NCBI GenBank assembly: GCA_021783235.1
Contig: JAJXUD010000012.1
Span: 16,503 to 80,502, forward strand
DNA from: Myxococcales bacterium
GTDB taxonomy: Bacteria; Myxococcota; Myxococcia; Myxococcales; JAKAPL01
Direction: 5' to 3'
DNA length: 64,000 nucleotides
Made by a program: the position numbers and the translations under genes. Within the stretch, counting starts at the first letter, position 1. Each line of letters starts with the position of its first letter. A model generated the notes under the pieces. It was not told the origin of the DNA. It saw only the letters and a program-made list of their open reading frames with translations, and made no database searches. Shown one piece after another: positions 3,279 through 28,715 of this stretch.

Positions 3279-3810
3279 CCACGACCGGGCCGGCCCCTCC
3301 CGCGCGCTTCGCGCGGAGCGGCTCTCGATCGGCCTGCTCGCCTTCGCCCTCGTCGCGGTCGCCTGCCGCAACGACTGGCGCACGGACATGTGGTACCAGC
3401 CCGCGATTCAGCCCCAGACGGCGCCCCCGCGCCCGGAGCCCGAGGACTCCGTTCCCCTCGGCGCCGAGCCGCCGATCGCCGATCGGGACGACGCCGAGAG
3501 CCTAAAGGATCCGGTCCCGCGCGACGCCGCCTCGGTGCGGCGCGGCGCCGCGATCTTCCACGAGCGCTGCATCTGCTGCCACGGGGCCGAGGGGTACGGG
3601 AAAGGGCCGGTGTCGCGCTTCTTCCCGCCCGCGCCGGACCTCCGCTTCCCGGCCATCGTCCAGAGGAGCGACGGCTACCTGTTCGGCACGATCACGTTCG
3701 GGGGCCGGGCCATGCCTCCCTACGTCGACGGCCTCACCCGGAACGACCGCTGGGACATCGTCAACTTCGTCCGGACGCTCCAGGGCCGGCCGCTGGAGGG
3801 GGGCCGATGA
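3268..3810 (+). CDS. actE: ACIII subunit ActE (monoheme cytochrome c)
   Basis: Single CXXCH (CICCHGAEGYG). Conserved N-terminal C-x-NDWRTDMWYQP motif shared with the paralog at 37738-38253. GTG start. Confidence 0.8.
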   Translation: MSRDHDRAGPSRALRAERLSIGLLAFALVAVACRNDWRTDMWYQPAIQPQTAPPRPEPEDSVPLGAEPPIADRDDAESLKDPVPRDAASVRRGAAIFHERCICCHGAEGYGKGPVSRFFPPAPDLRFPAIVQRSDGYLFGTITFGGRAMPPYVDGLTRNDRWDIVNFVRTLQGRPLEGGR

Positions 3811-4799
3811 CGCGTGGGATGCGCCGGCTGAGCAGCGCCGCGGTTCTCGTGGGGGCCGCCGCCCTCCTCTTCGGTTTCGTCACGGGCCGCCGCCCCCTCG
3901 TGCTCGCGCTGCTCGACGCGAGCTTCCTCTTCTGCGCCGGCGTCGCCGCCGGGGGCGTGGCGCTCTCGGCCAGCGTCCGGCTCGCCTTCGGCGGCTGGGC
4001 CGGCCCGCTCCTGCCCGCGGCCGAAGGGCTCGTCGACTTCCTGCTCCCTGCCCTGGGGCTCCTCGTCGTCTTGGTCCTCGAGGGCGCCGCCTGGAAGCCG
4101 AGGCCGCTCTCGGCCGGGCTCGCGATCCGCGATCTCGGCGGCGGCCTCCTCCTCTTCCTCGCGGCGCGCTGGTACGTGACGCGCCGGCGGCGCGGCGAGC
4201 CCATCGGCGCCCCGGCGGTGATCTACCTCCTCCTCTACGCCGCGGTCCTCTCCACCTGGGCCGTCGACCTGGTGCTCGACCTCGGCCCCTGGGCGCCGAG
4301 CACCGTCGTGCCCGCCTACTACTTCATGAGCGCGCTGCTCGCCGGGCTCGCCTGGGCCACGCTCCAGATCCTGGCGCGCGAGCGGGGCGAGGGCGACCCC
4401 GAGCTCCACCACGACGCCGGAAAGCTCGTCTTCGGCCTCGTCTGCTTCTGGGGCTACCTGCTCTTCGCGGGCTACCTGCCCGTCTGGTACGAGAACCTGC
4501 CCGACGAGACGGGCTTCCTCCTCGCCCGCTGGCACGGCGCCTTTCGGCCGCTCAGCCTGCTGACGCTCGCCGCCACCGGGCTCGTGCCCTTCGCGATCCT
4601 GCTCACCGAGTGGGCGAAGCGGCGGCGCGCCCTCCTCGCGGCCGGCACCGCCAGCGTGCTCGTCGGCGTGCTCGTGGAGTGCCTCCTCCTCGTGCTTCCG
4701 TCGCTGCCGCTCCAGGCGAGCGCCACCGGCGGCGTCCTGGGCGCGGGCGTGCTCGTGGGGAGCCTCGGGCTCGTCTTCTGGTTCGCGCCGCCGCCATGA
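3807..4799 (+). CDS. actF: ACIII subunit ActF (polytopic membrane protein, ActC-related)
   Basis: ATGA overlap with the actE stop. Multi-TM protein. Similar to the paralog at 36707-37741 (for example the YLPVWYENLPDETGFLL versus FLTIWYGNLPDETEFLV segments). Confidence 0.8.
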   Translation: MTRGMRRLSSAAVLVGAAALLFGFVTGRRPLVLALLDASFLFCAGVAAGGVALSASVRLAFGGWAGPLLPAAEGLVDFLLPALGLLVVLVLEGAAWKPRPLSAGLAIRDLGGGLLLFLAARWYVTRRRRGEPIGAPAVIYLLLYAAVLSTWAVDLVLDLGPWAPSTVVPAYYFMSALLAGLAWATLQILARERGEGDPELHHDAGKLVFGLVCFWGYLLFAGYLPVWYENLPDETGFLLARWHGAFRPLSLLTLAATGLVPFAILLTEWAKRRRALLAAGTASVLVGVLVECLLLVLPSLPLQASATGGVLGAGVLVGSLGLVFWFAPPP

Positions 4800-4872
4800 C
4801 CTGCATCAAGTTCGCGAGCGGAGAGCCGCCCTAGAGTTTCCTGCGAACCGCACTCCTCGTCGGGAGAACGCC

Positions 4873-5310
4873 ATGGCCGGCCTCATCGTGGACGACGTCA
4901 TGACCCGTCACCCGCGGACGATGTCCTCCGCCGCGACCATCCTCGCCGCCTACGAGGCGATGTCCTCCGGGAACTTCCGCCACCTGCCCGTCCTCGACGG
5001 CAAGCGGTCCATCGGCATCGTCTCCGATCGCGACATCCTGCGCCACATGCCGCCGCTCTCGCACGAGCCCAGGGACCGCGCCGCCCATGGCCAGTTCCTC
5101 CAGCGGCCCATCGCCGAGATCATGACCCAGAACCCGCTCACCGTGCTCGAGGGCTCGCCGCTCGAGGTCGTCGTCGAGCTGATGCTCGTCAACCAGGTGA
5201 GCGCCGTCCTCGTCGAGGACCAGGCCGCGACCCTGCGCGGCATCGTCACCACGGTGGACGTCGCCTCCGCGCTCCTGCGGCTCCTGCGCGGCGAGATCAG
5301 CCAGCGGTAG
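4873..5310 (+). CDS. CBS domain pair protein
   Basis: Two CBS-like motifs (VMTRHPRTM...HLPVLDG...GIVSDRDILR and IMTQNPLTV...VSAVLVED...GIVTTVDV). Confidence 0.75.
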   Translation: MAGLIVDDVMTRHPRTMSSAATILAAYEAMSSGNFRHLPVLDGKRSIGIVSDRDILRHMPPLSHEPRDRAAHGQFLQRPIAEIMTQNPLTVLEGSPLEVVVELMLVNQVSAVLVEDQAATLRGIVTTVDVASALLRLLRGEISQR

Positions 5311-13296: not shown

Positions 13297-13569
13297 CTAA
13301 GGTTCAAGAGGAGATCGAAGGAGAGCTGGTGGCTGCCCCTGCCACCGACGGCTTTGATTCCGGCCTCGACCTCCATCCAGCATGCACGGGACGAGTTCGA
13401 CCCCGATGGACGCCGCCCCGCCAGCCGAAGAGGCTCCCATCGAGGGAACCCAGTCGACTGAAGGCCCGACTGCCCCGAACGGCAACGAGGCCTCCTTCTC
13501 CGACTCGCTCTCCGCGCGGTCAGAGAAAAGCGGGCGGCCGATGTCAGGAAGCTCGGCGCCCTGGCCCAT
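13297..13569 (-). CDS. Candidate small protein sharing its N-terminal 16 residues with the ORF at 6015-6497
   Basis: Begins MGQGAELPDIGRPLFS. Two nucleotide differences from copy 1 within these codons are synonymous (CTC/CTT, TCC/TCT). The remainder is unrelated apart from a degenerate AESESE remnant. Confidence 0.35.
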   Translation of the reverse strand: MGQGAELPDIGRPLFSDRAESESEKEASLPFGAVGPSVDWVPSMGASSAGGAASIGVELVPCMLDGGRGRNQSRRWQGQPPALLRSPLEP

Positions 13570-13707
13570 ATGCGGGAGTAGAGAGCAAGAGAAGCGAGCG
13601 GGCGCTCTCGTGGGCTCCGGGTGGTCGATGGTCGGCCGGCCGGGGATCCACGGGTCCCGTGGCCTCGGTGGGGAAGCGCAAGCGACCGATCCGGACCGCG
13701 GGGTGCC
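13523..13707. repeat. Conserved ~185-bp block, copy 2 (pairs with 6451-6634)
   Basis: See copy 1. Similarity extends about 25 nt further left (13499-13522) into one degenerate 21-bp unit (cgactcgctctccgcgcg). Confidence 0.9.
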
Positions 13708-13769
13708 TCGAAGCGACTGCTCCGCCCGGCGGCATTGGTGCCGACGGTGGGAGCGTCCGAGCGCTTGGG

Positions 13770-14468
13770 ATGGCCGATCCCCAATCGACCAGAAAGGTAA
13801 ACGTGATGGTCAACAACAACAGCAGCATCCCCGGCGGCAGCATCGCCGGGGCCGCCGGCAGCGGCAGCAACGCGGCCGGCAGCGGAAGCCAGAGCACGCC
13901 GCCGTCGGGAGCGATCCCGGCGACCGTCATGCCGAAGTACGGCTTCCGCGACGAGGTCACGACGCTGGTGGACGCCATCGAGAAGAAGATTCCCGGTGGC
14001 CCCACCTTCGTGGTGGCCGGCCAGTCGATCACCAAGCAGGGCATCGAGGATCTCCTGAACGGGATCCTCGCGCTCTTCGAGGACGTCGACTCCGGCGCCC
14101 AGGCGCTGAAGCAGAAGCGTCTGGCCCTCGAGGCTGCGCTGCCCGGGGCTCACCAGTTCGTGGTGAACCTCAAGGCGGTTCTCGTCGGGCTCTTCGGCAA
14201 GGGCAACCCTGTCCTCGAGTCCTTCGGGATCGCGCCGAAGCCTCGCAAGCTCACGACCGAGCAGAAGCTCGCTCGGAAGGAGAAGGCGAAGCTGACGCGC
14301 GAGCAGCGCGGGACCGGTGGCAAGCGCCAGTTGGCGCTGAAGAAGTTCACCGGTCAGATCGTGGTCCAGACGGCGGTCGCGCCGTCCGGTACCCCGATCG
14401 AGGGGCTCGCGCCCCCCGCCGCCGGTGGCGACACCGGCGCTTCGTCCAGCACGCCCTCGCAGAAGTAG
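13770..14468 (+). CDS. Hypothetical protein with a Gly/Ser/Asn-rich N-terminus and a Lys/Arg-rich C-terminal half
   Basis: Clean ORF followed by a strong intrinsic terminator. An alternative start at 13803/13806 is preceded by AGAAAGG. No family was recognised. Confidence 0.6.
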   Translation: MADPQSTRKVNVMVNNNSSIPGGSIAGAAGSGSNAAGSGSQSTPPSGAIPATVMPKYGFRDEVTTLVDAIEKKIPGGPTFVVAGQSITKQGIEDLLNGILALFEDVDSGAQALKQKRLALEAALPGAHQFVVNLKAVLVGLFGKGNPVLESFGIAPKPRKLTTEQKLARKEKAKLTREQRGTGGKRQLALKKFTGQIVVQTAVAPSGTPIEGLAPPAAGGDTGASSSTPSQK

Positions 14469-14567
14469 GCGGAGGCGTGAAAGCCGGCACCCCGGGGCCG
14501 TCTCCTCCCGGGGCCGTGCGAGAGCGGCCTCTCTCGCGAACGGCGACCGCGGCCGAGGACGGCGGGA

Positions 14568-14604
14568 GCCCCGGGGATCGACGAGATCCCCGGGGCTTCT
14601 TTTC
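14568..14604 (+). terminator. Rho-independent terminator
   Basis: 12-bp perfect stem GCCCCGGGGATC-gacga-GATCCCCGGGGC followed by TTCTTTTC. Confidence 0.8.
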
Positions 14605-14690
14605 GCGCCGGAGGGCCTCCGATGCTTCCTTCATGCACTGTTTGAGATAGTCTGTGAGCGCTCGTCACGCAGCTCGACCGGGAGGACCCC

Positions 14691-17600
14691 ATGCAGCCGC
14701 CTCGCTCGCTCCGCGCGCTCATCGCGCAGGGGCTCGTCGCGCTGTCGCTCGCCGCCTGCCACCGCGGCGCGGGCGGCGCGCCGCCGCCGGTGACGGCGAC
14801 TCCCGCGACGCCGGCGAGCGCGGCCCCCGCCGAGAGCAAGCCGCCGCCAAGGCTCGCGGCCAGCGACGTGCAGCCCATCCTGAGCCCGCAGGGGAACGAC
14901 GGCGCGATCCCCGACCGGCTCGTCATCGAGCTCGCGCTGCCGGTGCTGGCCGACGGCTCCTTCCCGCGCCCCGCCTCGGCGAAGACGCGGCTCTCGTTCG
15001 AGCCGAGGGTCGAGGGGGAGCTCTCCTTCACGAGCCCGTCCACGCTGACCTTCACGCCTCGGCTCGGCTTCGCGCCGCGGCAGCGCTACCGGGCGACGCT
15101 CGAGCAGCTCGAGACCGACGCCGGGCCGCTGGCGGCGCCGGAGCCGGCGGGCTGGTCGACCACGTTCGAGACCCCGGCGTTCGGCTTCTCGCGGCTCGAT
15201 CTCGACGGGATCGACCTCGGCAAGCGGCGGATCGCGGTCAAGCTGCTCTTCACGGGGCCGCTCGAGGCCTCGCAGCTCCGGGGGCGCGCCTCGCTCCTGC
15301 TCGACGGCGTGCCGCCCTCGCACGTGGCGTTCGCCTCGACCCTCGATCCTCACGCGGTCCGCGCGCTGCTCGATCCGGCCTCCCTGCCGCCCGTCGGGAA
15401 GATCTCGCTGGCGCTGCGCGCGGGGGTGCGGCTGCGGGGCGGCCACGCCGAGGCCGAGGCGGCGGAGGCGAGCGTCGACTACTCGAGCGGCAAGCCGATC
15501 GACGTCAAGCTCGTGCAGCGGGGGGAGTCGCCGAGCGGCCACTACCTCGACGTGGTCTGCGACGATTCCGCGGCGGGCGGCGAGCGCTACTACTGGCAGC
15601 CGGACGCGGAGCAGTCGTTCCAGCTCTCGAAGCGCTGCCTGCCCACGGACGACAGCGCGCAGGAGCGGATCCACTTCACGCCGCCGGTGAAGTTCTCGAT
15701 CGCCCCGTCGGGGGGCGGTTTCCGCATCCTCGGAAGCTTCAAGCGCGGCAGCTACGCGATGCGCATCGACGCGGGCCTCGCCTCGGCCGACGGCGGAGTG
15801 CTCCTCGGCACGGTCGAGAAGTCGTTCTCCTTCCCGGCCCGCAAGCCGCAGCTCTCGTTCCTCTCGCAGGGGCGCTACCTGCCGCGCGCGGCCTGGAAGA
15901 GCCTGCCGGTGAGCCACCTCAACGTCGAGGAGGCGAAGCTCCAGATCCGGCAGGTGCCCCCCGAGGATCTGGTCTTCTGGGCGAGCGACGCCCAGAGCGA
16001 GAAGGCCACCGAGCGCGACAGCAACCTCCTGCTCGAAAAGACGGTCGCGCTCGGGCGCGCCGCGCCGGACGAGCCGACGACGAGCTGGATCGATCTCGCC
16101 TCGATGCTTCCCGCGAAGACGCGGGGGCTGCTCGAGATCCGCCTCTCGGCGGGCGGCGCGCAGGACGCGGTGGCGAGGATCGTCCTCACCGACCTGAACC
16201 TCGTGGCGAAGCGGGCCTCGGCCGCTCGGGCCCAGGACCAGTCGGTGCTCGTCTGGGCGCTCGACGCGTCGAGCGGCGAGCCGCTGTCGGGCGTCGACGT
16301 GAAGGCCGTGCGCATGAGCGGCAAGACGGTCGGCGAGTGCGAGACGCGCGGCGACGACGGCTGCCTCATGGCGCCCGCCCAGGACGACGCCGACCCCGCG
16401 CCGGCCTTCGCGCTGATCGCGCGCAAGGGGGACGACCTCACCTACCTCAAGTTCGCCGATCTCGAGACCGGCATCGACGACGCCGAGGTGGGTGGCGCGC
16501 CCTACCAGGGCGACCAGCCCTACCGCGCCGCGATTTACGGCGACCGGGGCGTCTACCGGCCCGGCGACGTCGCGCACCTCGTGGCGATCCTCCGCGACCG
16601 CGGCGACGTCGCCCCGCAGGAGCCCGTCCCGCTGGTCCTGCGGCTGACCGACCCCCGCGCGCGGACGATCCAGAGGCTCGTCGTCGAGACCAACCCGGCG
16701 GGGCTCGCGAAGCTCGACTGGCGCATCCCCGTCTTCGCCGACACGGGGAGCTACACGCTCACCGCGCTCGTCGCCGACAAGCCCGTGGGCACGCTCGCCT
16801 TCCACGTCGAGGAGTTCGTCCCCGAGCGGATGAAGGTCGTCGCGACCGCCGAGCAGAAGGATCTGCTCACGGGCGAGGCCGCCAAGGTGAAGGTCGCCGC
16901 GAAGTACCTCTTCGGCTCCACGCCCGAGGGGGCCAAGGTCGAGCTCGGCTGCAAGGTCGAGCCGGCGGCCTTTCACCCGACCCAGAACGCGAACCTCACC
17001 TATGGCGTCTGGCACCGGGGCGGCAAGGAGCCGAAGCCCATCGACCTCGGCAGCGCGGACGGGACGCTCGATTCGAAGGGGGAGGCGGAGCTCGCCTGCC
17101 CCGGCCAGGGCGGCCTCGCGGAGTCGGCGCGCGTCGTCGCCACCGCCGCGGTCTTCGAGTCCGGCAGCGGCCGGACGAGCCAGGCGGTCGCGACCGTGCC
17201 GCTCCACCCGGAGCGCTTCTACCTCGGCCTCTCGACCGGCGTGACCAGCGGCGCGGCGGGCAAGGCCATCCCCGTCTCGGGGAAGGTGGTCGACTGGAAC
17301 GGCGCCCGGATGAACGCCCTCACCAGCGTGGAGCTACGGCTCGTGCGGCTCGAAGAGGACTACGACTGGAGTTGGAACGCGGACGACGGGAACCAGGGGC
17401 TCCGGCGCTACCTCCGGCCGATCGTCGAAGGGAAGGAGACCGTCCCGGTGAAGGACGGGAGGTTCGAGGCGACGCTGACCCCGCAGGAGGACGCCGAGTC
17501 GTTCCTCGTCGAGGCGCGCGCCGGCAAGGCGCGCACGGATCTCGAGATCAAGGGGAACGGCCGCTGGTGGTGGGCGCCAGGCGAGAGCCAGGCGGAGCAG

Positions 17601-20348
17601 ACCCCGAAGCCGCAGAAGCCGACCTGGATCGTCTTGACCGCACCGCCGAAGCTGCGGGTCGGGCAGAAGGCGGTGGTGACCGCGAAGCTGCCGTACCGCG
17701 GCCGGGCGCTCTTCACGGTGGAGACCGACCACGTCCTCAGCTCGAGCTGGCGCGCCGTGCAGGCGGGGGAGAACGGCTTCGAGCTGACGCTCGACCGGTT
17801 CGCGCCGAACGTCTACGTGAGCGTCTTCCTCGTGAAGGACCCCCACCTCGAGTCGCCCCAGGCCTACCTGCCCGACCGGGCCTTCGGCGTCACCTCGGTC
17901 CCGCTGGAGCCGGTCGACTACACGCAGGCCGTCCGGCTGGAGGTGCCGAAGGAGGTGCGCAGCGAGGGCAAGCTCGAGGTCTCCCTCGATCTCGGCAAGC
18001 TCGACGGGCCGACCTGGGCCACGGTAGCGGCGGTGGACGAGGGCATCCTGCAGCTCACCCACTTCGAGCCGCCCGAGCCGCTGCGCCAGATCTTCGCGAA
18101 GCGCGCGCTCGGGGTCGAGACCTTCGAGACCATCGGCTGGTCGCTCCTCCTGCCGCCGCAGGGCGGTGCGGCAGGCGGAGATCAGGCGGCCGGCAAGGGT
18201 GGGCGCGTCCAGCAGGTCGAGCCCGTCGCGCTCTGGTCGGGCCTCGTCGAGCTGCCGCCGAGCGGCAAGGCGAAGGTGGCCTTCGACCTGCCTTCCTACC
18301 GCGGCGCGCTGCGCGTCATGGCCGTGACGGTGGGGCCGAAGCGAGTGGGCCACGCCGACGCCGAGCTGCTCGTGCGCGACCCGCTCGTGGTGCAGACGAC
18401 CTTGCCGCGCTTCCTCTACCAGGGGGACGTGGCGCAGATTCCGGTCTTCGTCTCGAACCTCTCGGGCGCGCCGCGCGAGGTGACGGTGACCATCGACGCC
18501 GCCGACCTCCCCTACCCCGGCCTCGATCTGCCGGCCGGGCTACCGGCTCCGGTGGCCGTCGTCGGCCGCTCGGCGAAGCGGCTGTCGCTCCCCGCCGGCA
18601 AGGACGGCGTGGTGGTGTTCCAGGCGAAGGCGACCGCGGCGGTGGGGGCCGCGACCCTGCGGGTCACCGCGAGCGCGGGCGAGCTCGCGAGCCACGAGAA
18701 GACCAAGGTGCCGATCCTGCCCGTCGGGCCGCGCACGCGGCTCGTGCAGCGCGTCCTGCTCTCGCAGGGCGACAACGAGCTCTCGACCGACCTCGCGGGC
18801 TGGCTGCCCACCTCCGAACGGTCGACCTTCTGGGTGACCTCGAACCCTTACGGCGACGTGCTGGATCACGTGAGCTACCTCCTGCACTACCCCTATGGCT
18901 GAATCGAGCAGACCGTGTCGTCGACACGGCCCCTGCTGTTCCTCTCCGACCTCGTGCCGAGCCTCGACCCGGCGCTGGTCGCGCATGACCGCATCGAGGA
19001 TCTCGTCTCCCACGGCATCGATCACCTCTTCACCATGCAGACCCCCGAGGGCGGCTTCAGCTTCTGGCCCGGCGAGACGGAGCCCCAGCTCTGGGGAAGC
19101 GCCAACGCGGTGCAGCTGCTCCTCGACGCCCAGAAGCACGGCTACGCGGTGCCCCAGGATCGGCTCGACGCCGCCGTCGACTACCTCGCGCAGGCGTCGT
19201 CGAACCTCGCGGGCGGCGGCGTCCGCCACGAGTGGAGCGAGCTCGGCGACGGCGACCCCGAGCCCTACGTGCAGTTCGTGCTGGCGCTGACGGGCAAGGC
19301 GAACCGGGGGCGGCTGCAGAAGCTCATCGACAGGATGGCCCCGAACCCGACGGGCGAGCAGGCCGAGGAGCTCTACATGCTCCAGGCGGCGCTCTGGCTC
19401 TCGGGCGATCGCCGCTACGAGGGCGCGCTGAAGCGGCCGGACGTCTCGGCGCTCACCGACGAGCGCTCGAACCGCTGGTCCTTCTACTCGGATCGGCGGC
19501 GGCGGGGCTTCATGCTCTCGACGTTCGTCGACCTCTTCGGCCAGGATCCCGCCGGAGAGCCGCTCGCGGCGCTGGTGGCCGAGGGGCTGCGCGGCCACGC
19601 CGACGACTGGTACACCACGCAGGAGCTGGTCTGGGGGATCACCGGCCTCGGCAAGTGGATCCGGGGCGCGGCGGCGACCTTCTCGCCGCCCGAGCTCGTC
19701 GCGGACGGCAAGCGGCTCGCGCCCCAGCCCGCGCCCCCCACCGCGAAGGGCGGCGATCGCGTCTGGGCGGTCGCGCGCGCGAGCGAGTACCACTCGGTCG
19801 ACTTACGGGTGAAGCAGAAGGGTGAGGGGAAGCTCTACCTCTTGCTCTCGAGCGAGGGCGTACGGGCGCACCCGGATGCGCGCGAGGGCGGCGAGGGGCT
19901 GCGGGTGAGCCGCCGCTACGTGAAGGAGGACGGCACGCCGCTGGACCCCTCGAAGCACGCGCTCGGCGATCTCGTCTTCGCGGAGATCGAGCTGACGAAC
20001 ACGACCGGCGAGCGACTCGACAACATCGCCCTCGTCGACCGCTTCCCCGCGGGTTGGGAGATCGAGAATGCCCGGCTGGGCCGCGGCGGGGCGACCGCCG
20101 ACTTCGTGTCGCAGGACGACCTCTGGACGGCGGACTACGTCGACCTGAGGGACGATCACGTCGAGTGGTTCGGAAGCCTCGGTCGGGGCGAGGCGAAGAA
20201 GGTGGTCTACCTCCTGCGCGCCGTCACCGCCGGCCACTTCGACGTGCCGCCGGTGGAGGCGTCGGCGATGTACGACCCTCGGATCTGGGCGCGCGGCGAG
20301 CCACAGAGCTTCGACGTGGGCGGCCCGTGGAAGCCGTACCTGGACTAG
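14691..20348 (+). CDS. Bacterial alpha-2-macroglobulin family lipoprotein (YfhM/ECAM-like). A single reading frame with an in-frame TGA at 18900-18902, at the thioester Cys position.
   Basis: Lipobox LSLAAC. Track ORFs 14691-18902 and 18915-20348 are in the same frame. The junction reads HYPYG-TGA-IEQTVSSTRPLLFL, compared with the canonical PYG-C-x-EQ thioester motif. pbpC lies immediately downstream, as in E. coli yfhM-pbpC. Confidence 0.8.
18903..18940 (+). promoter_or_regulatory. Candidate SECIS-like stem-loop downstream of the in-frame TGA
   Basis: Hairpin CCGTGTCG-T-CGACACGG at 18913-18929 starts 10 nt after the TGA. A possible lower stem pairs AGCA (18907-18910) with TGCT (18934-18937). 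The apical loop contains G and U. Confidence 0.4.
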
Positions 20349-20363
20349 CGGACGCGAGCGGAC

Positions 20364-22745
20364 GTGAGCGGCGAGCCCTCACCCTCCCCCCCCTTCCGGC
20401 GCGCCGCGCTGGAAGAGGGGGGCGCCACGAAGCCGCCGCGCGACCAGCGCTCCCTTCTTCCGGGCCGCGGTCGTCGATGGCTCGCGGCGCTCGCCGCCGT
20501 GCCGGTCGCGCTCCTCGTCGCCCTCTACGCCGTTCCCCTCCCCACCCGCCTCGCCGAGCCCGGCTCGACGATCGTCCAGTACCGCGACGGCACCACGGCC
20601 TACGTCTTCCTCTCGCCGGACGACCGCTGGCGCATTCCAGTCAGCGCGCGCGAGGTGGACCCCGCCTACCTGCGGGCGCTGCTGCGGCTCGAGGACAAGC
20701 GCTTCTGGCGCCACCCGGGCGTCGACCCGCTGGCCGTGCTCCGGGCCGCCTGGATCGACCTCTCCCGCGGGCGCGCGGTCTCGGGCGCCTCGACGCTCAC
20801 GATGCAACTCGTGCGCGTCCTCGAGCCGCGGCCGCGGACGCTCCGCTCCAAGGCGGTCGAGGCCTTCCGCGCGCTCCAGCTCGAGCTGCGGCTCGGCAAG
20901 CCGCGGATCCTCGGCGCCTACCTCTCGCACGCCCCCTTCGGCCGAAACGTCGAGGGGGTCGAGGCGGCCTCGCTCGCCTACTTCGGCCACGGCGCCCGCG
21001 CCCTCACGCCGGCGGAGATCGCGACCCTGCTCGCGGTGCCACAGGACCCGAACCACCGCTTCCCGTCGCCGCGCAACCGCGAGCGACTGCGGGCGGCCCG
21101 CGGCCGGGTCGCCGAGCGGCTCGGCGCGCCGCTCGGCCCGGCGAGCCCGGTTCCCGATCGGCTCCTGCCGTTCCCCCGCGAGGCGAGCCACGCGGCGGTC
21201 TGGCTCCACGGGCTCGAGCCGGCCCTGCCCCGCCTCCGGACGACCCTCGACCGCGGCATCCAGGCGACCGCGGCGCGGATCCTCGCCGGGGCGGCGCCTG
21301 CGCTCGCGCTCGAAGGGATCCACAACGGCGCCGCCGTGGTCATCGACCACGTCGCGGGCGAGGTCCGCGCGCTCGTCGGGAACGTCGAGCCCGACGACCC
21401 CTCGCATGGCGGGCAGATCGCGGGCTTCGCCCAGCGCCGCTCGACCGGCTCCACCCTCAAGCCGTTTCTCTACGCCGCCGCGATCGACCGCGGCCTCGCG
21501 CTCCCCGACGAGCTGGTGGCCGACGTGCCGAGCCGCTTCGGAGGCTACGCGCCCCACAACTACGACCAGAGCTTCGCGGGGCTCGTGCGGCTCGAGGAGG
21601 CGCTCTCGCAGTCGCTCAACGTCCCCTTCGTGCGGCTGCTCTCCCGCTTCGGCGTGCCCGAGTTCATCGGGCTTCTCGGCCGGCTGGGCGCCCGCGGCGT
21701 CGAGGACGATCCCGGCCGCTACGGCCTCTCGGCGGTGGTGGGGGGCGTCGAGATCTCGCCCCTCGAGCTCGCGCAGCTCTTCACGGCGCTCGCCGAGGAC
21801 GGCCTCGCGCGCCCCGCGCGGCTGCTCGCCTCGGATCCGGCGACCGCGGGCACGCGGATCTTCAGCCCCGGCGCGGCTTTCCTGACGCGGCGCGCGCTCT
21901 ACCGGCGCGACCGGCCGGACTTCCCGGCGCGGCGCGAGCTGTCGGGCGTCCCCGCGAGCATCCACTGGAAGACCGGAACGAGCTACGGCCACCGCGACGC
22001 CTGGGCGGTGGGCTCCGGGCCGCGCCACACCGCCATCGTCTGGCTCGGCAACTTCGACGAGCAGCCGAGCCCCGATCTCGTGGGCGCCGAGGCGGCCGGC
22101 CCCCTCTTCTTCGACGTGCTCGAGGCGCTCGACGGAAAGCTGCCGCCCCGCTCCGAGGCGCCGACCCAAGATCTCACCCAGGTCGATCTCTGCGCGGTCT
22201 CGGGCTTCCTCCCGACCCCGGCCTGCCCGGAGCGGCGCCACTCGCTCGCCCTGCGCCGCCGCGTTCCGACTAAGAGCTGCCCCTACCACGTCGCCGTGGA
22301 CGTCGACGTCTCGAGCGGGCTCGCGCTCTCGCCGACCTGCCGCGCGGGACGGCGCTTCGAGCGGAGGAGCTTCCTCTCCTGGCCCGCGAGCGTCCGCCGC
22401 TGGCTCGTCGACGAACAGCGCCGCTCTCCAGAGCTACCCGCCTTCGCCCCCGGCTGCGAGCTCGGCGGCGTCCGCGAGCCGCCGTCGATCGTCTCGCCGC
22501 CGTCGCGCGAGGTGGCCTTCCTCATCCCGGGCGTGCCGGCGGAGCGGCAGTCGATCGCGCTCGAGGCCGAGAGCCGCTCCCCCTCGTCCAGGCTGAGCTG
22601 GTTCGTCGACGGCGAGCTGCTCGGAACCTACCCGGCCGGCCAGCGCGCCTTCTGGACGCCGCGCCCGGGCCAGCACCAGATCGTCGTGATGGACGAGGCC
22701 GGGCTATCGGCGCGGCGCGAGCTCACCGTCCGATCCGCGCCGTGA
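20364..22745 (+). CDS. pbpC: Penicillin-binding protein 1C (bifunctional glycosyltransferase/transpeptidase)
   Basis: GT51 motifs (LEDKRFWRHPGVD, ASTLTMQLVR). Transpeptidase STGSTLKP (SxxK) motif. A C-terminal PBP1C-type domain. Located directly after the A2M gene. Confidence 0.85.
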   Translation: MSGEPSPSPPFRRAALEEGGATKPPRDQRSLLPGRGRRWLAALAAVPVALLVALYAVPLPTRLAEPGSTIVQYRDGTTAYVFLSPDDRWRIPVSAREVDPAYLRALLRLEDKRFWRHPGVDPLAVLRAAWIDLSRGRAVSGASTLTMQLVRVLEPRPRTLRSKAVEAFRALQLELRLGKPRILGAYLSHAPFGRNVEGVEAASLAYFGHGARALTPAEIATLLAVPQDPNHRFPSPRNRERLRAARGRVAERLGAPLGPASPVPDRLLPFPREASHAAVWLHGLEPALPRLRTTLDRGIQATAARILAGAAPALALEGIHNGAAVVIDHVAGEVRALVGNVEPDDPSHGGQIAGFAQRRSTGSTLKPFLYAAAIDRGLALPDELVADVPSRFGGYAPHNYDQSFAGLVRLEEALSQSLNVPFVRLLSRFGVPEFIGLLGRLGARGVEDDPGRYGLSAVVGGVEISPLELAQLFTALAEDGLARPARLLASDPATAGTRIFSPGAAFLTRRALYRRDRPDFPARRELSGVPASIHWKTGTSYGHRDAWAVGSGPRHTAIVWLGNFDEQPSPDLVGAEAAGPLFFDVLEALDGKLPPRSEAPTQDLTQVDLCAVSGFLPTPACPERRHSLALRRRVPTKSCPYHVAVDVDVSSGLALSPTCRAGRRFERRSFLSWPASVRRWLVDEQRRSPELPAFAPGCELGGVREPPSIVSPPSREVAFLIPGVPAERQSIALEAESRSPSSRLSWFVDGELLGTYPAGQRAFWTPRPGQHQIVVMDEAGLSARRELTVRSAP

Positions 22746-22780: not shown

Positions 22781-23191
22781 CTACTCCTTCACGGGCGGCG
22801 ACGAGAGCACGTCGACGCCGCTCGGCACGGTGACCTGGGCGTCGGCCTCGGCCGTCACGAAGAGCGTGAAGCGGGTGAACGACGTCACGGTCTCGAGCTC
22901 GCCCTCGAGGTCCTTGTCGACCTTGAGCGCCCCGACGTTGATGGGCTTGCCGTCGCCGCCGGCCGGCCGGACCCAGACGACGTAGGTCGTCGCGCCGTCC
23001 GAGAGCTTGGGCGCCGGGGCGAGGTGCTGGACCTCGAGGTCGATGTGGACGTTGCCGTTCGAGGTCTCCTTCGTCTTGAGGTGGCCCTGGGCGGCGGGCT
23101 CCCGCGAGGTGGGGAGGAGCTCGTAGGCGCTGCCGGCACAGCCGAAGAGGCCGATCGAGAGGACCAGGGCGAGGAAGGATGCGCGCTTCAC
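22781..23191 (-). CDS. Hypothetical lipoprotein
   Basis: GTG start preceded by GGAGG. Lipobox LSIGLFGC. The longer track ORF extending to 23581 is a GC-rich N-terminal artefact. Confidence 0.6.
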   Translation of the reverse strand: MKRASFLALVLSIGLFGCAGSAYELLPTSREPAAQGHLKTKETSNGNVHIDLEVQHLAPAPKLSDGATTYVVWVRPAGGDGKPINVGALKVDKDLEGELETVTSFTRFTLFVTAEADAQVTVPSGVDVLSSPPVKE

Positions 23192-23270
23192 GGGCGGACC
23201 TCCGGTTGAAGGGGTGACCGGCAGGCAGAATAGGAAATCCGACCGTCCCCGTCCACTCGCGACCGAGCCC

Positions 23271-24908
<1,638 letters not shown>

Positions 24909-24990
24909 GAAGGCGAATGGAATCGGGAGGGCCCGGGGCGGAGTGACCGTGGCCGAGGCCGGCACCGCGCCGGGCGCTCCAGCGCCACCG

Positions 24991-26370
24991 ATGGATCCCG
25001 ATCGGCGACCGACGCTGGGGCTCTGGGACTCCACCGCCATCGTCGCCGGCTCCATGGTCGGCTCGGGAATCTTCCTCGTCTCCGCCGACGTCGCCCGACT
25101 CACCGGCTCGCCCGGCTGGCTCCTCGGCGTCTGGCTCTTCGCGGGCGCCCTGACCGTGGCGGCGGCGCTCTCGTACGGCGAGCTCGCAGCCATGATGCCG
25201 AAGGCCGGGGGGCAGTACGTCTACCTGCGCGAGGCCTTCGGCCCCGCCCCGGCCTTTCTCTTCGGCTGGACGCAGCTCGCGGTGATCCAGACCGGCACGA
25301 TCGCCGCGGTGGCCGTCGCCTTCGCTCGTTTCCTCGGCGTGCTCGTCCCCTCGATCTCCGACCGGCCACTCGCGCTCGCGGGCCCGCTCGTGCCGACCCC
25401 GCAGCGACTCGTGGCGGTGGCCCTCGTCGTCCTCCTCACCTTCGCGAACTCGCGAGGGCTCGAGGCGGGCAAGCTCCTCCAGAACGGCTTCACCGCCGCC
25501 AAGGCGCTCGTCCTCCTCGCGCTCTGCGCCCTCGGCTTCTGGGCGCTCGGCGGCGGGGAGCGCTTCGCCTCGGCGGCCATCCACGCGCGCCCCTTCTTCG
25601 GCCCCTTCCCCGCCGCCACCATCGGCCCTGCCATGGTCGGCGCCCTCTTCGCCGCCGACGCCTGGAACAACGTGACGTTCACCGCCGGCGAGGTGCGGGA
25701 CCCGGCGAGAAACCTCCCCCGCTCGCTCCTGCTCGGCACGGCGCTCGTCATCGGCCTCTACCTCGCCGTGAACGTCGCCTACCTCGCCGTGCTCTCGCTG
25801 CCCGCCATCGCCCACGCCCCCGCCGACCGGGTCGCCTCGGCCGCCGTCTCGGCAGCCCTCGGCCCGGGGGCGGCCCTCGCGGTGGCGGTCGCGATCCTCG
25901 TCTCCACCTTCGGCTGCACGAACGGCCTCGTCCTCGCCGGCGCGCGGGTTTCGTACGCGATGGCAGGGGACGGCCTCTTCTTCCGCGCCGCCGGCAAGCT
26001 CAACGGGCGCGGCGTCCCCGGGGCGGCGCTCTGGATGCAGGCGGGGTGGGCCGCGCTCCTCTGCCTCTCCGGCAGCTACAGCGAGCTGCTCGACTACGTC
26101 ATCTTCGCGGTGCTCCTCTTCTACGTCCTCACGCTGCTCGGCCTCTTCCGGCTGCGCCGCACCCGTCCCGAGGCAGAGAGGCCCTACCGAACGCTGCTCT
26201 ACCCCTGGCTACCCGTGGCCTATGTGCTCCTCGCGAGCGCGATTGCCGTGGGGCTGCTGCTCGCCCCCGAAACCCGGAGCCAGGCGCTCTCGGGCCTCGG
26301 CTGCGTCCTCGCCGGCATCCCCGTCTACGTCCTCTTCCGGCGGCGGGCCGCCGGGCCGTCTCACCAGTAG
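24991..26370 (+). CDS. APC-superfamily amino acid/polyamine permease
   Basis: LGLWDSTAIVAGSMVGSGIFLVSA N-terminal motif. Polytopic membrane protein. An alternative GTG start lies at 24898. Confidence 0.8.
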   Translation: MDPDRRPTLGLWDSTAIVAGSMVGSGIFLVSADVARLTGSPGWLLGVWLFAGALTVAAALSYGELAAMMPKAGGQYVYLREAFGPAPAFLFGWTQLAVIQTGTIAAVAVAFARFLGVLVPSISDRPLALAGPLVPTPQRLVAVALVVLLTFANSRGLEAGKLLQNGFTAAKALVLLALCALGFWALGGGERFASAAIHARPFFGPFPAATIGPAMVGALFAADAWNNVTFTAGEVRDPARNLPRSLLLGTALVIGLYLAVNVAYLAVLSLPAIAHAPADRVASAAVSAALGPGAALAVAVAILVSTFGCTNGLVLAGARVSYAMAGDGLFFRAAGKLNGRGVPGAALWMQAGWAALLCLSGSYSELLDYVIFAVLLFYVLTLLGLFRLRRTRPEAERPYRTLLYPWLPVAYVLLASAIAVGLLLAPETRSQALSGLGCVLAGIPVYVLFRRRAAGPSHQ

Positions 26371-27242: not shown

Positions 27243-28715
27243 ATGAACGCCTTGTTCGCCCGCAAGACCATCGCGCAGCTCCAGTCGGAGGCGGACGAGC
27301 AGGAGCACGGCCTGCGCCGGGCGCTCTCGGCCTTCAACCTGATGACGCTCGGGATCGGCGCCATCATCGGCGCTGGCATCTTCGTCTTGACGGGGGTGGC
27401 CGCGGCTCAGTACGCGGGCCCGGCGGTGGTGCTCTCCTTCATGCTGGGCGGAGTCGCCTGCGCCTTCGCCGGCCTCTGCTACGCCGAGATGGCGTCCACG
27501 GTGCCCATCGCCGGCAGCGCGTACACCTACTCCTACGCCACCATGGGCGAGCTCTTCGCCTGGATCATCGGCTGGGACCTCTGCCTCGAGTACGCCTTCG
27601 GCGCCACCACGGTGGCAATCGGCTGGTCCGGCTACGTGGTCAGCTTCCTCAAGAGCCTCGGGCTCGCCCTGCCCCAGGCGCTGACCCACGCGCCGGCCGA
27701 GGGGGGACTCCTGAACCTCCCGGCCGCCCTCATCGTCCTCGCCGTCACCGCGCTCCTCGTCGTGGGGGTCAAGGAGTCGGCCAACGTGACCTCGGCCATC
27801 GTGGTCGTGAAGGTGCTCGTCGTCCTCGCCTTCCTCGCCGCCTGCGCCCCCTTCATCCACGCCTCCAACTGGCATCCCTTCGTGCCGCGGAACAGCGGGG
27901 CGTTCGGCCACTACGGCTGGTCTGGGATCCTGCGGGGCGCCGGGGTGGTCTTCTTCGCCTACATCGGCTTCGACGCCGTCTCCACGGCGGCGCAGGAGGC
28001 GAAGAACCCGCAGCGGGACATGCCGATCGGCATCCTCGGGAGCCTCGTCGTCTGCACGCTGCTCTACATCGCGGTCGCGCTCGTCATCACTGGCATCGTG
28101 AGCTACACCACGCTGAACGTGCCCGATCCCATCGCGGTCGGCGTCGACGCGGTGGGCCTCACGTGGCTCGCGCCGATCATCAAGATCGGCGCCATCCTGG
28201 GGCTGACCTCGGTGATCCTGGTCATGCTGATGGGCCAGCCGCGCATCTTCTTCTCCATGGCGAACGACGGCCTCCTGCCGCCCGGGGCCGCCAAGATCCA
28301 TCCGCGCTTCCGCACGCCGTACGTGACGACGATGATCACGGGCGCGGTGGTCGCGGTGGCGGCGGCGCTCCTGCCCATCGGCGTCGTGGGCGAGCTCGTC
28401 AGCATCGGCACGCTCCTCGCCTTTGCACTCGTCTGCGCCGGCGTCCCCGTGCTCCGGCTGCTCGACCCGGACGCCAAGCGACCGTTCCGCACGCCCGCCG
28501 TCTGGCTGGTGGCGCCGCTCGGCGTGGCCTCGTCGCTGGCGCTCATGGCCGGGCTGCCGCTCGACACCTGGCTCCGGCTCGTCGTCTGGATGGCGATCGG
28601 CCTCGCCATCTACTTCTTCTACGGCCGCAAGCACAGCAAACTGCGGCTGGCCCGGCCGCCCAACGCGTCGAACGGTCCGCCGGAGACGGCGCGGGGTGTC
28701 GGAGGGATGAAGTAA
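27243..28715 (+). CDS. APC-superfamily amino acid permease (cationic amino acid transporter-like)
   Basis: [28 protein letters not shown] motif. Polytopic. Paralog of 23271-24908. Confidence 0.85.

Follow-up and report, generated by a model that had tools for sequence, protein, structure and literature searches.

We analysed a 64,000-nt stretch of DNA from a Myxococcales bacterium (GenBank assembly GCA_021783235.1, contig JAJXUD010000012.1, positions 16,503 to 80,502 of the forward strand; hereafter the window, in whose own coordinates positions are given) and focused on its gene for a type I (YfhM/ECAM-like) alpha-2-macroglobulin (A2M). This gene, at 14691-20348 on the forward strand, carries an in-frame TGA at 18900-18902, where homologs have the codon of the thioester-forming cysteine. 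Our results indicate that this UGA is very probably decoded as selenocysteine (Sec) in this organism, in which case the gene has a full length of 1885 codons. The evidence that carries this reading is the recurrence of the same TGA in A2M genes of about 7 phyla, the protein-level constraint on the part downstream of it, and a hairpin directly 3' of the TGA that is conserved with compensatory changes among relatives.

An A2M gene with TGA in place of the thioester cysteine codon

The reading frame runs from ATG 14691 to TAG 20346-20348 and contains 1885 sense codons and one internal stop only. The first-pass annotation of the window had described two open reading frames (ORFs) in one frame, parted only by the TGA at 18900-18902 at the thioester Cys, and this was confirmed. 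Pfam searches identified MG2, bMG3, bMG5, A2M_BRD and A2M domains 5' of the TGA and bMG10 3' of it. When the two ORFs were joined with Cys placed at the TGA, a TED_complement match of 29.4 bits (cut-off 22) extended across the TGA position (query residues 161-272), while neither ORF fragment alone gave a Pfam match to TED. A PDB sequence search placed HYPYG-[TGA]-IEQT opposite YPYG-C-LEQT of the Salmonella A2M (4U48) and of E. coli YfhM (4ZIU, 4ZIQ, 5A42 and 4RTD). In this alignment the window's YPYG (TAC CCC TAT GGC, 18888-18899, forward strand) matches that of both proteins, and the TGA, the proposed Sec codon for residue 1404, matches the thioester Cys of CxEQ. The TGA is followed by ATC GAG CAG ACC, encoding IEQT, in which CAG (18909-18911) specifies Gln1407, the Q of CxEQ and the proposed acyl partner, 3' of the TGA and 5' of any possible restart codon. 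The canonical C-x-E-Q is absent from the TED of the window, which reads TGA-I-E-Q, with E and Q kept and the Cys codon replaced by TGA; if this TGA encodes Sec, the resulting U-x-E-Q would be a chemical analogue, and the protein an A2M variant and a non-canonical member of the family.

The remaining features of the warhead region and of both termini were also those of a type I A2M. In ECAM, CXEQ is the thioester motif (Cys1187-Gln1190) and Tyr1183 and Tyr1185 shield the bond; in SaA2M the shield is provided by Tyr1175 and Tyr1177 and also by a C-terminal Met-Tyr (PMC4498604). We infer that the shielding tyrosines correspond to the two Tyr of YPYG. The window protein also retains, as judged from its sequence, the C-terminal Met-Tyr (...SAMYDP near the C-terminus). 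At the N-terminus, a signal peptide with a lipobox (14691-14759, forward strand) was read by eye from the translation: the segment LSLAAC ends in LAAC at codons 20-23, with the Cys at codon 23. The lipobox rule is [LVI][ASTVI][GAS]C, and the protein is predicted to be a membrane-anchored periplasmic lipoprotein, as is YfhM. By these predicted features, only the Cys codon sets the gene apart from a canonical bacterial A2M of type I.

The composition of the gene was coding-like on both sides of the TGA, with a GC content at third codon positions (GC3) of 0.97 before it and 0.95 after it, and 18900-18902 is the sole TGA of the 64-kb window with coding-type composition on both flanks. Many genes of the window end in TGA, which outside this A2M gene serves there as a normal stop codon, so reassignment of the genetic code is not the explanation. 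In the current annotation (gene callers and NCBI), the gene appears as a 1403-aa product, labelled by NCBI as an ordinary "alpha-2-macroglobulin family protein", and a separate 477-aa ORF. No NCBIfam model matched the pieces of the A2M, and a curated selenoprotein model for a Sec-A2M family is thus lacking.

Recurrence of the TGA in A2M genes of about 7 phyla

To survey relatives, we searched proteins with the region across the junction as query, a search that is blind to the type of stop codon. Among the best 120 matches, 86 contained P[YF]G-C-xEQ, with Cys at the TGA position, and 22 stopped exactly at YP[YF]G (approximately 570-1430 residues, 46-100% identity to the query). We examined the contigs of 9 of these 22 proteins (15 contigs), and all 15 showed TGA with an in-frame [IL]EQT continuation. 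The frame after the TGA stayed open for 473-485 codons wherever the contig was long enough (all but L006). One of these relatives, L001, is an independent metagenome-assembled genome (MAG; GCA_027417995.1) whose junction is identical to that of the window, and the 90% cluster of its protein has 6 members from NCBI, ENA and Logan assemblies, each of 1403 aa.

We then scanned DNA for the pattern TAYCCNTWYGGN-TGA-NTNGARCARAC (YP[YF]G-TGA-xEQT) in one genome per GTDB species, where its information content led us to expect about 2 chance matches. The scan returned 17 matches, 16 of which lay in A2M genes with long ORFs on either side. These 16 carriers belonged to Myxococcota (Myxococcaceae, Myxococcales, Polyangia and a "Deltaproteobacteria" MAG), Anaerolineae (Chloroflexota), Planctomycetota, Verrucomicrobiota, Candidatus Poribacteria, Abditibacteriales and Vicinamibacteria. 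For six non-myxobacterial representatives, Pfam searches of the read-through translations found bMG10 3' of the TGA in 6/6, A2M 5' of it in 5/6 and TED across it in 5/6. The seventeenth match (L028) was a chance match in a non-A2M context.

In metagenomes, the critical codon of the scan was relaxed to TRR, a pattern that admits TGA, TAA, TAG and TGG. It yielded 26 matches, of which 23 carried TGA, all in A2M genes, on contigs with a GC content of 0.40-0.74. None of the 26 had TAA or TAG at the critical codon in an A2M context; one TAG and two TGG matches lacked such a context. Altogether, 34 distinct TGA junction sequences from about 7 phyla were obtained, and the putative class of A2M genes with TGA at the Cys codon is, on these counts, widespread. 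In a rough neighbour-joining tree built from the 330 residues before the motif in 92 sequences, Sec-type A2Ms fell into at least 6 clades interleaved with Cys-type A2Ms. Such patchy distribution is typical of families with Sec and Cys members, and the Sec-type A2M appears, from this tree, to have arisen or been lost repeatedly.

Protein-level constraint downstream of the TGA

The frames downstream of the TGA were open for 448-534 codons, or to the contig end, in all loci but L026. In comparison with L002, the downstream part of the window gene showed 80.5% amino acid identity and a dN/dS of 0.28, against 71.7% and 0.43 for the upstream part; in comparison with L004, the corresponding identities were 70.4% downstream and 60.9% upstream. 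By these measures, protein-level constraint is at least as strong downstream of the TGA as upstream of it. Between the TGA and any possible restart lie the invariant codons for E, Q and T, and the restart sites chosen by gene callers differ by lineage, from 13 to 106 nt after the TGA. The simplest reading of these patterns would be continuous translation through the UGA.

The exception, L026, is a Verrucomicrobiota MAG with its TGA at 3488 of the reverse strand, in which the frame breaks 19 codons after the TGA; a near-identical metagenome contig (L055) is intact. The break is either a frameshift or assembly error, or the mark of a decaying copy.

A conserved hairpin directly 3' of the TGA

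Ten bases after the TGA starts a hairpin (18913-18929, forward strand; CCGTGTC-GTC-GACACGG), which we propose as the upper stem-loop of a bacterial selenocysteine insertion sequence (bSECIS). The first-pass annotation had noted a perfect 17-nt hairpin here and a possible lower stem pairing AGCA with TGCT. The palindrome was indeed present, but not in the form described: because a 1-nt loop is physically impossible, the fold is a 7-bp stem (CCGUGUC/GACACGG) closed by a GUC triloop that begins 17 nt after the UGA. The lower stem was found as well and proved longer, with AGCAG (18907-18911) facing CUGCU (18933-18937), so that the whole two-tier element occupies 18907-18937 on the forward strand, with an internal loop of A on the 5' side and CCC on the 3' side. 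The minimum free energy (MFE) was -10.3 kcal/mol for the upper stem and -17.3 kcal/mol for the whole 35-nt element, and a 53-nt fold had a z of -2.8. In the published bSECIS model, the apical loop has 3-9 nt and the upper stem 4-16 bp, a G falls within the first two positions of the loop (mostly G[G/U]), UGA and loop are 16-37 nt apart, and the MFE is ≤ -7.5 kcal/mol (PMC13188914). The window hairpin lies within all of these limits in its loop (GUC), stem (7 bp), spacing (17 nt) and MFE. The significance of the hairpin lies in its conservation across relatives, not in its stability.

To assess this conservation, we aligned 14 different sequences from the clade of the window (alignment A1). The upper stem was 92.9% paired, with compensatory double changes at two of its pairs: 16:28 was G-C in 6 sequences, U-A in 3, A-U in 1 and A·C in 4, and 17:27 was C-G in 11 and U-A in 3. 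None of 500 shuffles reached the observed covariation score, pairing fell to 32-57% when the 3' partner was slid by 1-3 columns, and RNAalifold predicted the same stem independently. The lower stem was 82% paired across the 14 relatives and showed no compensatory change among them; it is for this reason the weaker part of the element and is retained only as probable. The resemblance to a bacterial SECIS that had been suggested for the single sequence was thus borne out both by the published criteria and by compensatory changes.

Synonymous sites within the stem pointed in the same direction. Thr+4 was ACC in 15/15 and Ser+6 was TCG in 15/15, and position +9 was Arg (CGG or AGG) or Trp (UGG), while Pro, Gly and Leu codons adjoining the stem, whose residues are conserved to the same degree, varied among 3-4 synonyms. 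Calculated from each gene's own codon usage over eight lineages that are not fully independent, the joint chance was approximately 10^-1.8, 10^-3.9 and 10^-3.5 for Thr+4, Ser+6 and Arg+9, respectively. Thr+8 (window 18924-18926) was ACA in the window, L002 and L004, a codon that makes up 1% of the Thr codons of these genes, and the A of this ACA pairs with the U of GUG at +5. In L007 and L021, the otherwise invariant Arg+9 is replaced by Trp (UGG), which gives the A of ACG at +5 a Watson-Crick partner again; this is an amino-acid change that preserves the predicted RNA structure.

We compared these elements with Cys-type relatives and with the other phyla. Three Cys-type contigs (L060, L061 and L062) formed 5/7, 3/7 and 5/7 of the stem pairs and had ACG at +4, two of the three with the identical peptide. 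A scan of viral_contigs for further Cys-type DNA controls returned nothing, so the Cys control is limited to these three contigs. The TxSSTRP peptide in GC-rich codons already supplies 5/7 stem pairs, which may make conversion from Cys to Sec easier and may, as a pre-adaptation, account for repeated switching between the two. In other phyla, both the peptide after the motif and the hairpins differ, with GUU or GUUU loops at 20-32 nt (L017-L059, e.g. L018, L020, L022, L025, L031 and L052). The candidate hairpins were UGGCACG-GUU-CGUGCCG in a planctomycete, as against GGCAGG-GUU-CCUGCC in L052, and UGCCGUG-GUU-CGCGGCA with 32-nt spacing in Verrucomicrobiales and Vicinamibacteria; Anaerolineae showed only a weak candidate of 4 bp.

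Sec use in an organism carrying a TGA-A2M

To look for Sec-decoding machinery, we ran ARAGORN on the window and all loci, and tblastn with E. coli SelA and SelB and with the SelD of L008 against the window and 61 loci. A selD gene was found at 4187-5236 on the reverse strand of L008, and the same gene in L009, 5 kb upstream of the TGA-A2M of this contig, which carries P0106. Its product matched TIGR00476 with 362 bits (cut-off 125) and NF002098 with 315 bits (cut-off 299). The gene itself has an in-frame TGA at the catalytic site (...GVKAAG-TGA-ASKLPP), corresponding to the UxxK motif of Sec-type SelD, and for this reason the gene caller had truncated its N-terminus. The predicted SECIS of this selD has, above a lower stem and an internal loop, an upper stem of 8 bp capped by a GGA triloop; the element of the A2M gene in the same locus closely resembles it, with the same tiers but an upper stem of 7 bp and a GGG triloop. 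Plausibly, one SelB would read both elements in this organism. Sec use is shown, at the level of predicted genes, in one organism carrying a TGA-A2M (L008/L009). Within Myxococcota, 11 selenoproteins have been reported in Anaeromyxobacter (PMC1794560).

Located 2 kb from this selD, at 1136-2134 on the forward strand of L008, is a gene with PF04463 (DUF523 / 2-thiouracil-desulfurase-like) and DUF1722 domains; DUF523 is among the selenoprotein families of a 2026 review (PMC13188914).

Weighing Sec against other readings of the TGA

The first-pass annotation had proposed Sec, with a nonsense mutation or a base-call error as the alternatives, and had asked whether relatives keep the TGA and hairpin or carry TGC. 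Every check that was run favoured Sec over these two: TGA and hairpin are conserved in many divergent relatives while other relatives have Cys encoded by TGC or TGT, and the same TGA occurs in independent assemblies (L001 and the six cluster members). Its suggestion that the feature might be peculiar to this gene did not hold, as the TGA belongs to a widespread family in about 7 phyla.

An error of sequencing or assembly at 18900-18902 has nothing but its prior possibility in its favour and is, with the identical junction in the independent MAG L001, six cluster members of 1403 aa each and TGA in all relatives examined, excluded for practical purposes; we assign it a negligible probability. 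A nonsense mutation from TGC or TGT, leaving a dead A2M with an untranslated downstream part, is a single substitution from either Cys codon, agrees with the annotation of a 1403-aa product plus a separate 477-aa ORF, and is in keeping with the lack of Sec machinery in the window. Pseudogene remnants should decay, however, and in every locus but L026 the downstream ORF has stayed intact over 448-534 codons. The downstream part is more conserved than the upstream part, with a lower dN/dS, and in the window it retains a GC3 of 0.95 and the thioester-shielding MY motif; moreover, the same TGA recurs in 34 distinct junctions. Intact and constrained downstream ORFs exclude repeated nonsense mutations, and we consider this explanation highly improbable, though less so than an error.

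Two further explanations accept that the downstream part is made, and we regard both as unlikely, each with a small chance that nonetheless exceeds that of a nonsense mutation. The gene could be a split A2M, in which translation stops at the UGA and restarts nearby (e.g. at GTG 18915), giving two polypeptides that assemble without a residue at the Cys position and without a thioester. The in-frame GTG 13 nt after the window TGA and the fact that gene callers find some start in every relative would fit this. Yet no restart codon is conserved, the called starts being scattered from 13 to 106 nt after the TGA, and the codons between the TGA and these starts encode the invariant E-Q-T of the warhead. 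A stable split should also drift to TAA or TAG, especially at a GC content of 0.40-0.57, whereas 23/23 were TGA; the TED domain would be cut at its reactive motif; and there are signs of selection on the stem at the RNA level. Alternatively, read-through might occur free of selenium, by a near-cognate Trp or Cys tRNA or a tRNA-Sec-like Cys-tRNA, placing W or C at residue 1404, with the hairpin a generic stimulator. Low-level read-through of UGA is common in bacteria, and no Sec machinery was found in the 64-kb window of this genome. Against this, the element fits the SelB-type bSECIS model in its spacing and G-rich triloop and resembles the SECIS of the Sec-type SelD in the organism of the L008 A2M. 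A Trp would be unable to form the acyl bond, and if the product were Cys, nothing would favour TGA over TGC across many lineages.

Decoding as Sec, which we prefer to these alternatives, has points against it as well. None of selA, selB, selD and tRNA-Sec was found within the 64-kb window, and the SelD of L008/L009 was the only Sec machinery among the fetched loci; ARAGORN detected no tRNA-Sec in the window or any locus, and Rfam at gathering thresholds gave no match in the window. The stability of the hairpin is ordinary for coding DNA of 70% GC: 5.9% of codon positions in the window A2M precede equally stable 35-nt folds, as do 0.1-30% of codon positions in six relatives, and stability was set aside as evidence. 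The T-[TV]-S-S-T-R-P peptide under the hairpin is also conserved in Cys-type relatives, so part of the hairpin's conservation is at the protein level, and the evidence at the RNA level is limited to two covarying pairs, the synonymous sites and three Cys controls. Of the three stop codons, only TGA is a single substitution away from TGY, so that the exclusive occurrence of TGA, although it speaks against a stable split gene, would not by itself exclude repeated nonsense mutation. For the chemistry, a selenoester is thermodynamically harder to form from a Gln amide than a thioester, which leaves this step uncertain. Both the RNA-guided insertion of Sec and the selenoester are predictions from sequence.

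Proposed mechanism

We propose that the hairpin at 18913-18929, standing on the weaker lower stem, would recruit SelB·GTP·Sec-tRNASec as the ribosome nears the UGA. Sec1404 would then take the position of the Cys in the C-x-E-Q warhead, which would become U-I-E-Q within one periplasmic lipoprotein of 1885 residues. When a protease cuts the bait region, the A2M would change shape and expose the internal acyl bond between residue 1404 and Gln1407, which would then acylate a lysine of the protease. With Sec, this bond would be a selenoester, combining a better nucleophile with a better leaving group, and faster capture would be expected. When selenium is scarce, the product would be a 1403-residue protein without the TED and the C-terminal MG domain.

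The shielding Tyr, the E, the Q and the C-terminal MY are all retained, so the warhead pocket is evidently under selection, and this suggests that the Sec would do the job of the Cys and be joined to Gln1407 by an internal acyl bond. Compared with a thiol, a selenol is more nucleophilic and its pKa is lower, and a selenoester is more reactive towards amines. This known selenium chemistry predicts faster capture, yet it also raises doubt whether the bond forms and survives. In our judgement, a selenoester between Sec1404 and Gln1407 and a free selenol at Sec1404 are about equally probable, and we see an even chance that there is a widespread class of bacterial A2Ms with an internal Sec-Gln selenoester as the protease-capturing warhead.

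Relation to known A2Ms and selenoproteins

Type I A2Ms such as E. coli YfhM (ECAM) and Salmonella SaA2M share with the window protein the MG domains, the bait region, A2M, TED and a C-terminal bMG10. They also share the lipoprotein signal, YPYG-x-[ILV]EQT, both shielding Tyr, the C-terminal Met-Tyr and a pbpC gene immediately 3'. In contrast to both, the window has TGA as the thioester Cys codon together with a SECIS-like hairpin, and its reactive bond, should one form, would be a selenoester. In sequence, the window protein has low identity to the solved YfhM and SaA2M proteins, with an E of about 1e-12 over the TED. The Cys-type A2Ms of the same myxobacterial clade (e.g. P0001, P0005, P0015 and P0048) are closer, with 50-58% identity, C-[ILV]-EQT[TV]SSTRPLL and the same pbpC linkage. 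They differ from the window gene in having TGC for TGA, and their TxSSTR codons form only 3-5 of the 7 stem pairs.

Bacterial selenoprotein genes such as fdhF and selD resemble the window gene in having UGA at a functional Cys of homologs and a model-fitting stem-loop directly 3'. The patchy distribution over the family tree, with TGA orthologs in several phyla, is likewise shared by bacterial Sec/Cys selenoprotein families and the Sec-A2M. We hold with high confidence, from these sequence features, that the window A2M is a real selenoprotein gene. In almost all known selenoprotein families, Sec is located in redox or metal-binding sites (PMC13188914), whereas here it would stand in for a Cys that forms an acyl bond, in an exported protease inhibitor of very large size.

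The Sec-A2M family appears to be undescribed in the literature searched. A 2026 review that presents "the most comprehensive inventory", covering 119 families and subfamilies of prokaryotic selenoproteins, nowhere mentions macroglobulin, thioester, A2M or MG2, either in its text or in its Table 1 (PMC13188914). Full-text literature searches gave no mention of a Sec-containing A2M, and none was present in the deep-Sep paper, the main text of the BSepDB paper, a 2022 review, or Kivenson et al. 2021 with two supplements included.

If the proposal is true, this would be the first natural protein selenoester and a rare case of Sec serving acyl transfer instead of redox reactions. A selenoester A2M would also trap proteases faster and offer a direct natural experiment on the reason for the thioester in the complement/A2M superfamily. 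Selenoesters are valued by chemists because their reaction with amines is far faster than that of thioesters. For biochemistry, the family would offer a simple Sec/Cys pair in which methylamine reactivity, autolysis and capture kinetics can be compared. For annotation, genes of roughly 1900 residues would at present be split in error into a truncated A2M and an orphan "bMG10" ORF, which would hide a selenoprotein family of soil, wetland, marine and sponge-associated bacteria.

Genomic context

Immediately 3' of the A2M gene, at 20364-22745 on the forward strand, lies pbpC, encoding PBP1c with Transgly, Transpeptidase and BiPBP_C Pfam domains. An operon linkage of yfhM and pbp1C has been stated previously (PMC4498604). 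Among the 9 relatives whose contigs were examined, pbpC followed the A2M gene in 8; in L015, whose contig stops shortly after the A2M gene, no pbpC was called. In L011, an extra 313-aa ORF without a Pfam match (15610-16551, forward strand) lies between the Sec-A2M gene and pbpC; it is absent in the window and in the other relatives.

Two ORFs flanking the A2M-pbpC pair, at 13382-14650 on the forward strand (422 aa) and 22781-23581 on the reverse strand (266 aa), had no Pfam match. Just 3' of the pair, three amino-acid permease (AA_permease_2) genes (23214-24908, 24898-26370 and 27243-28715, all on the forward strand) follow, and the same order was found in the sister MAG L001.

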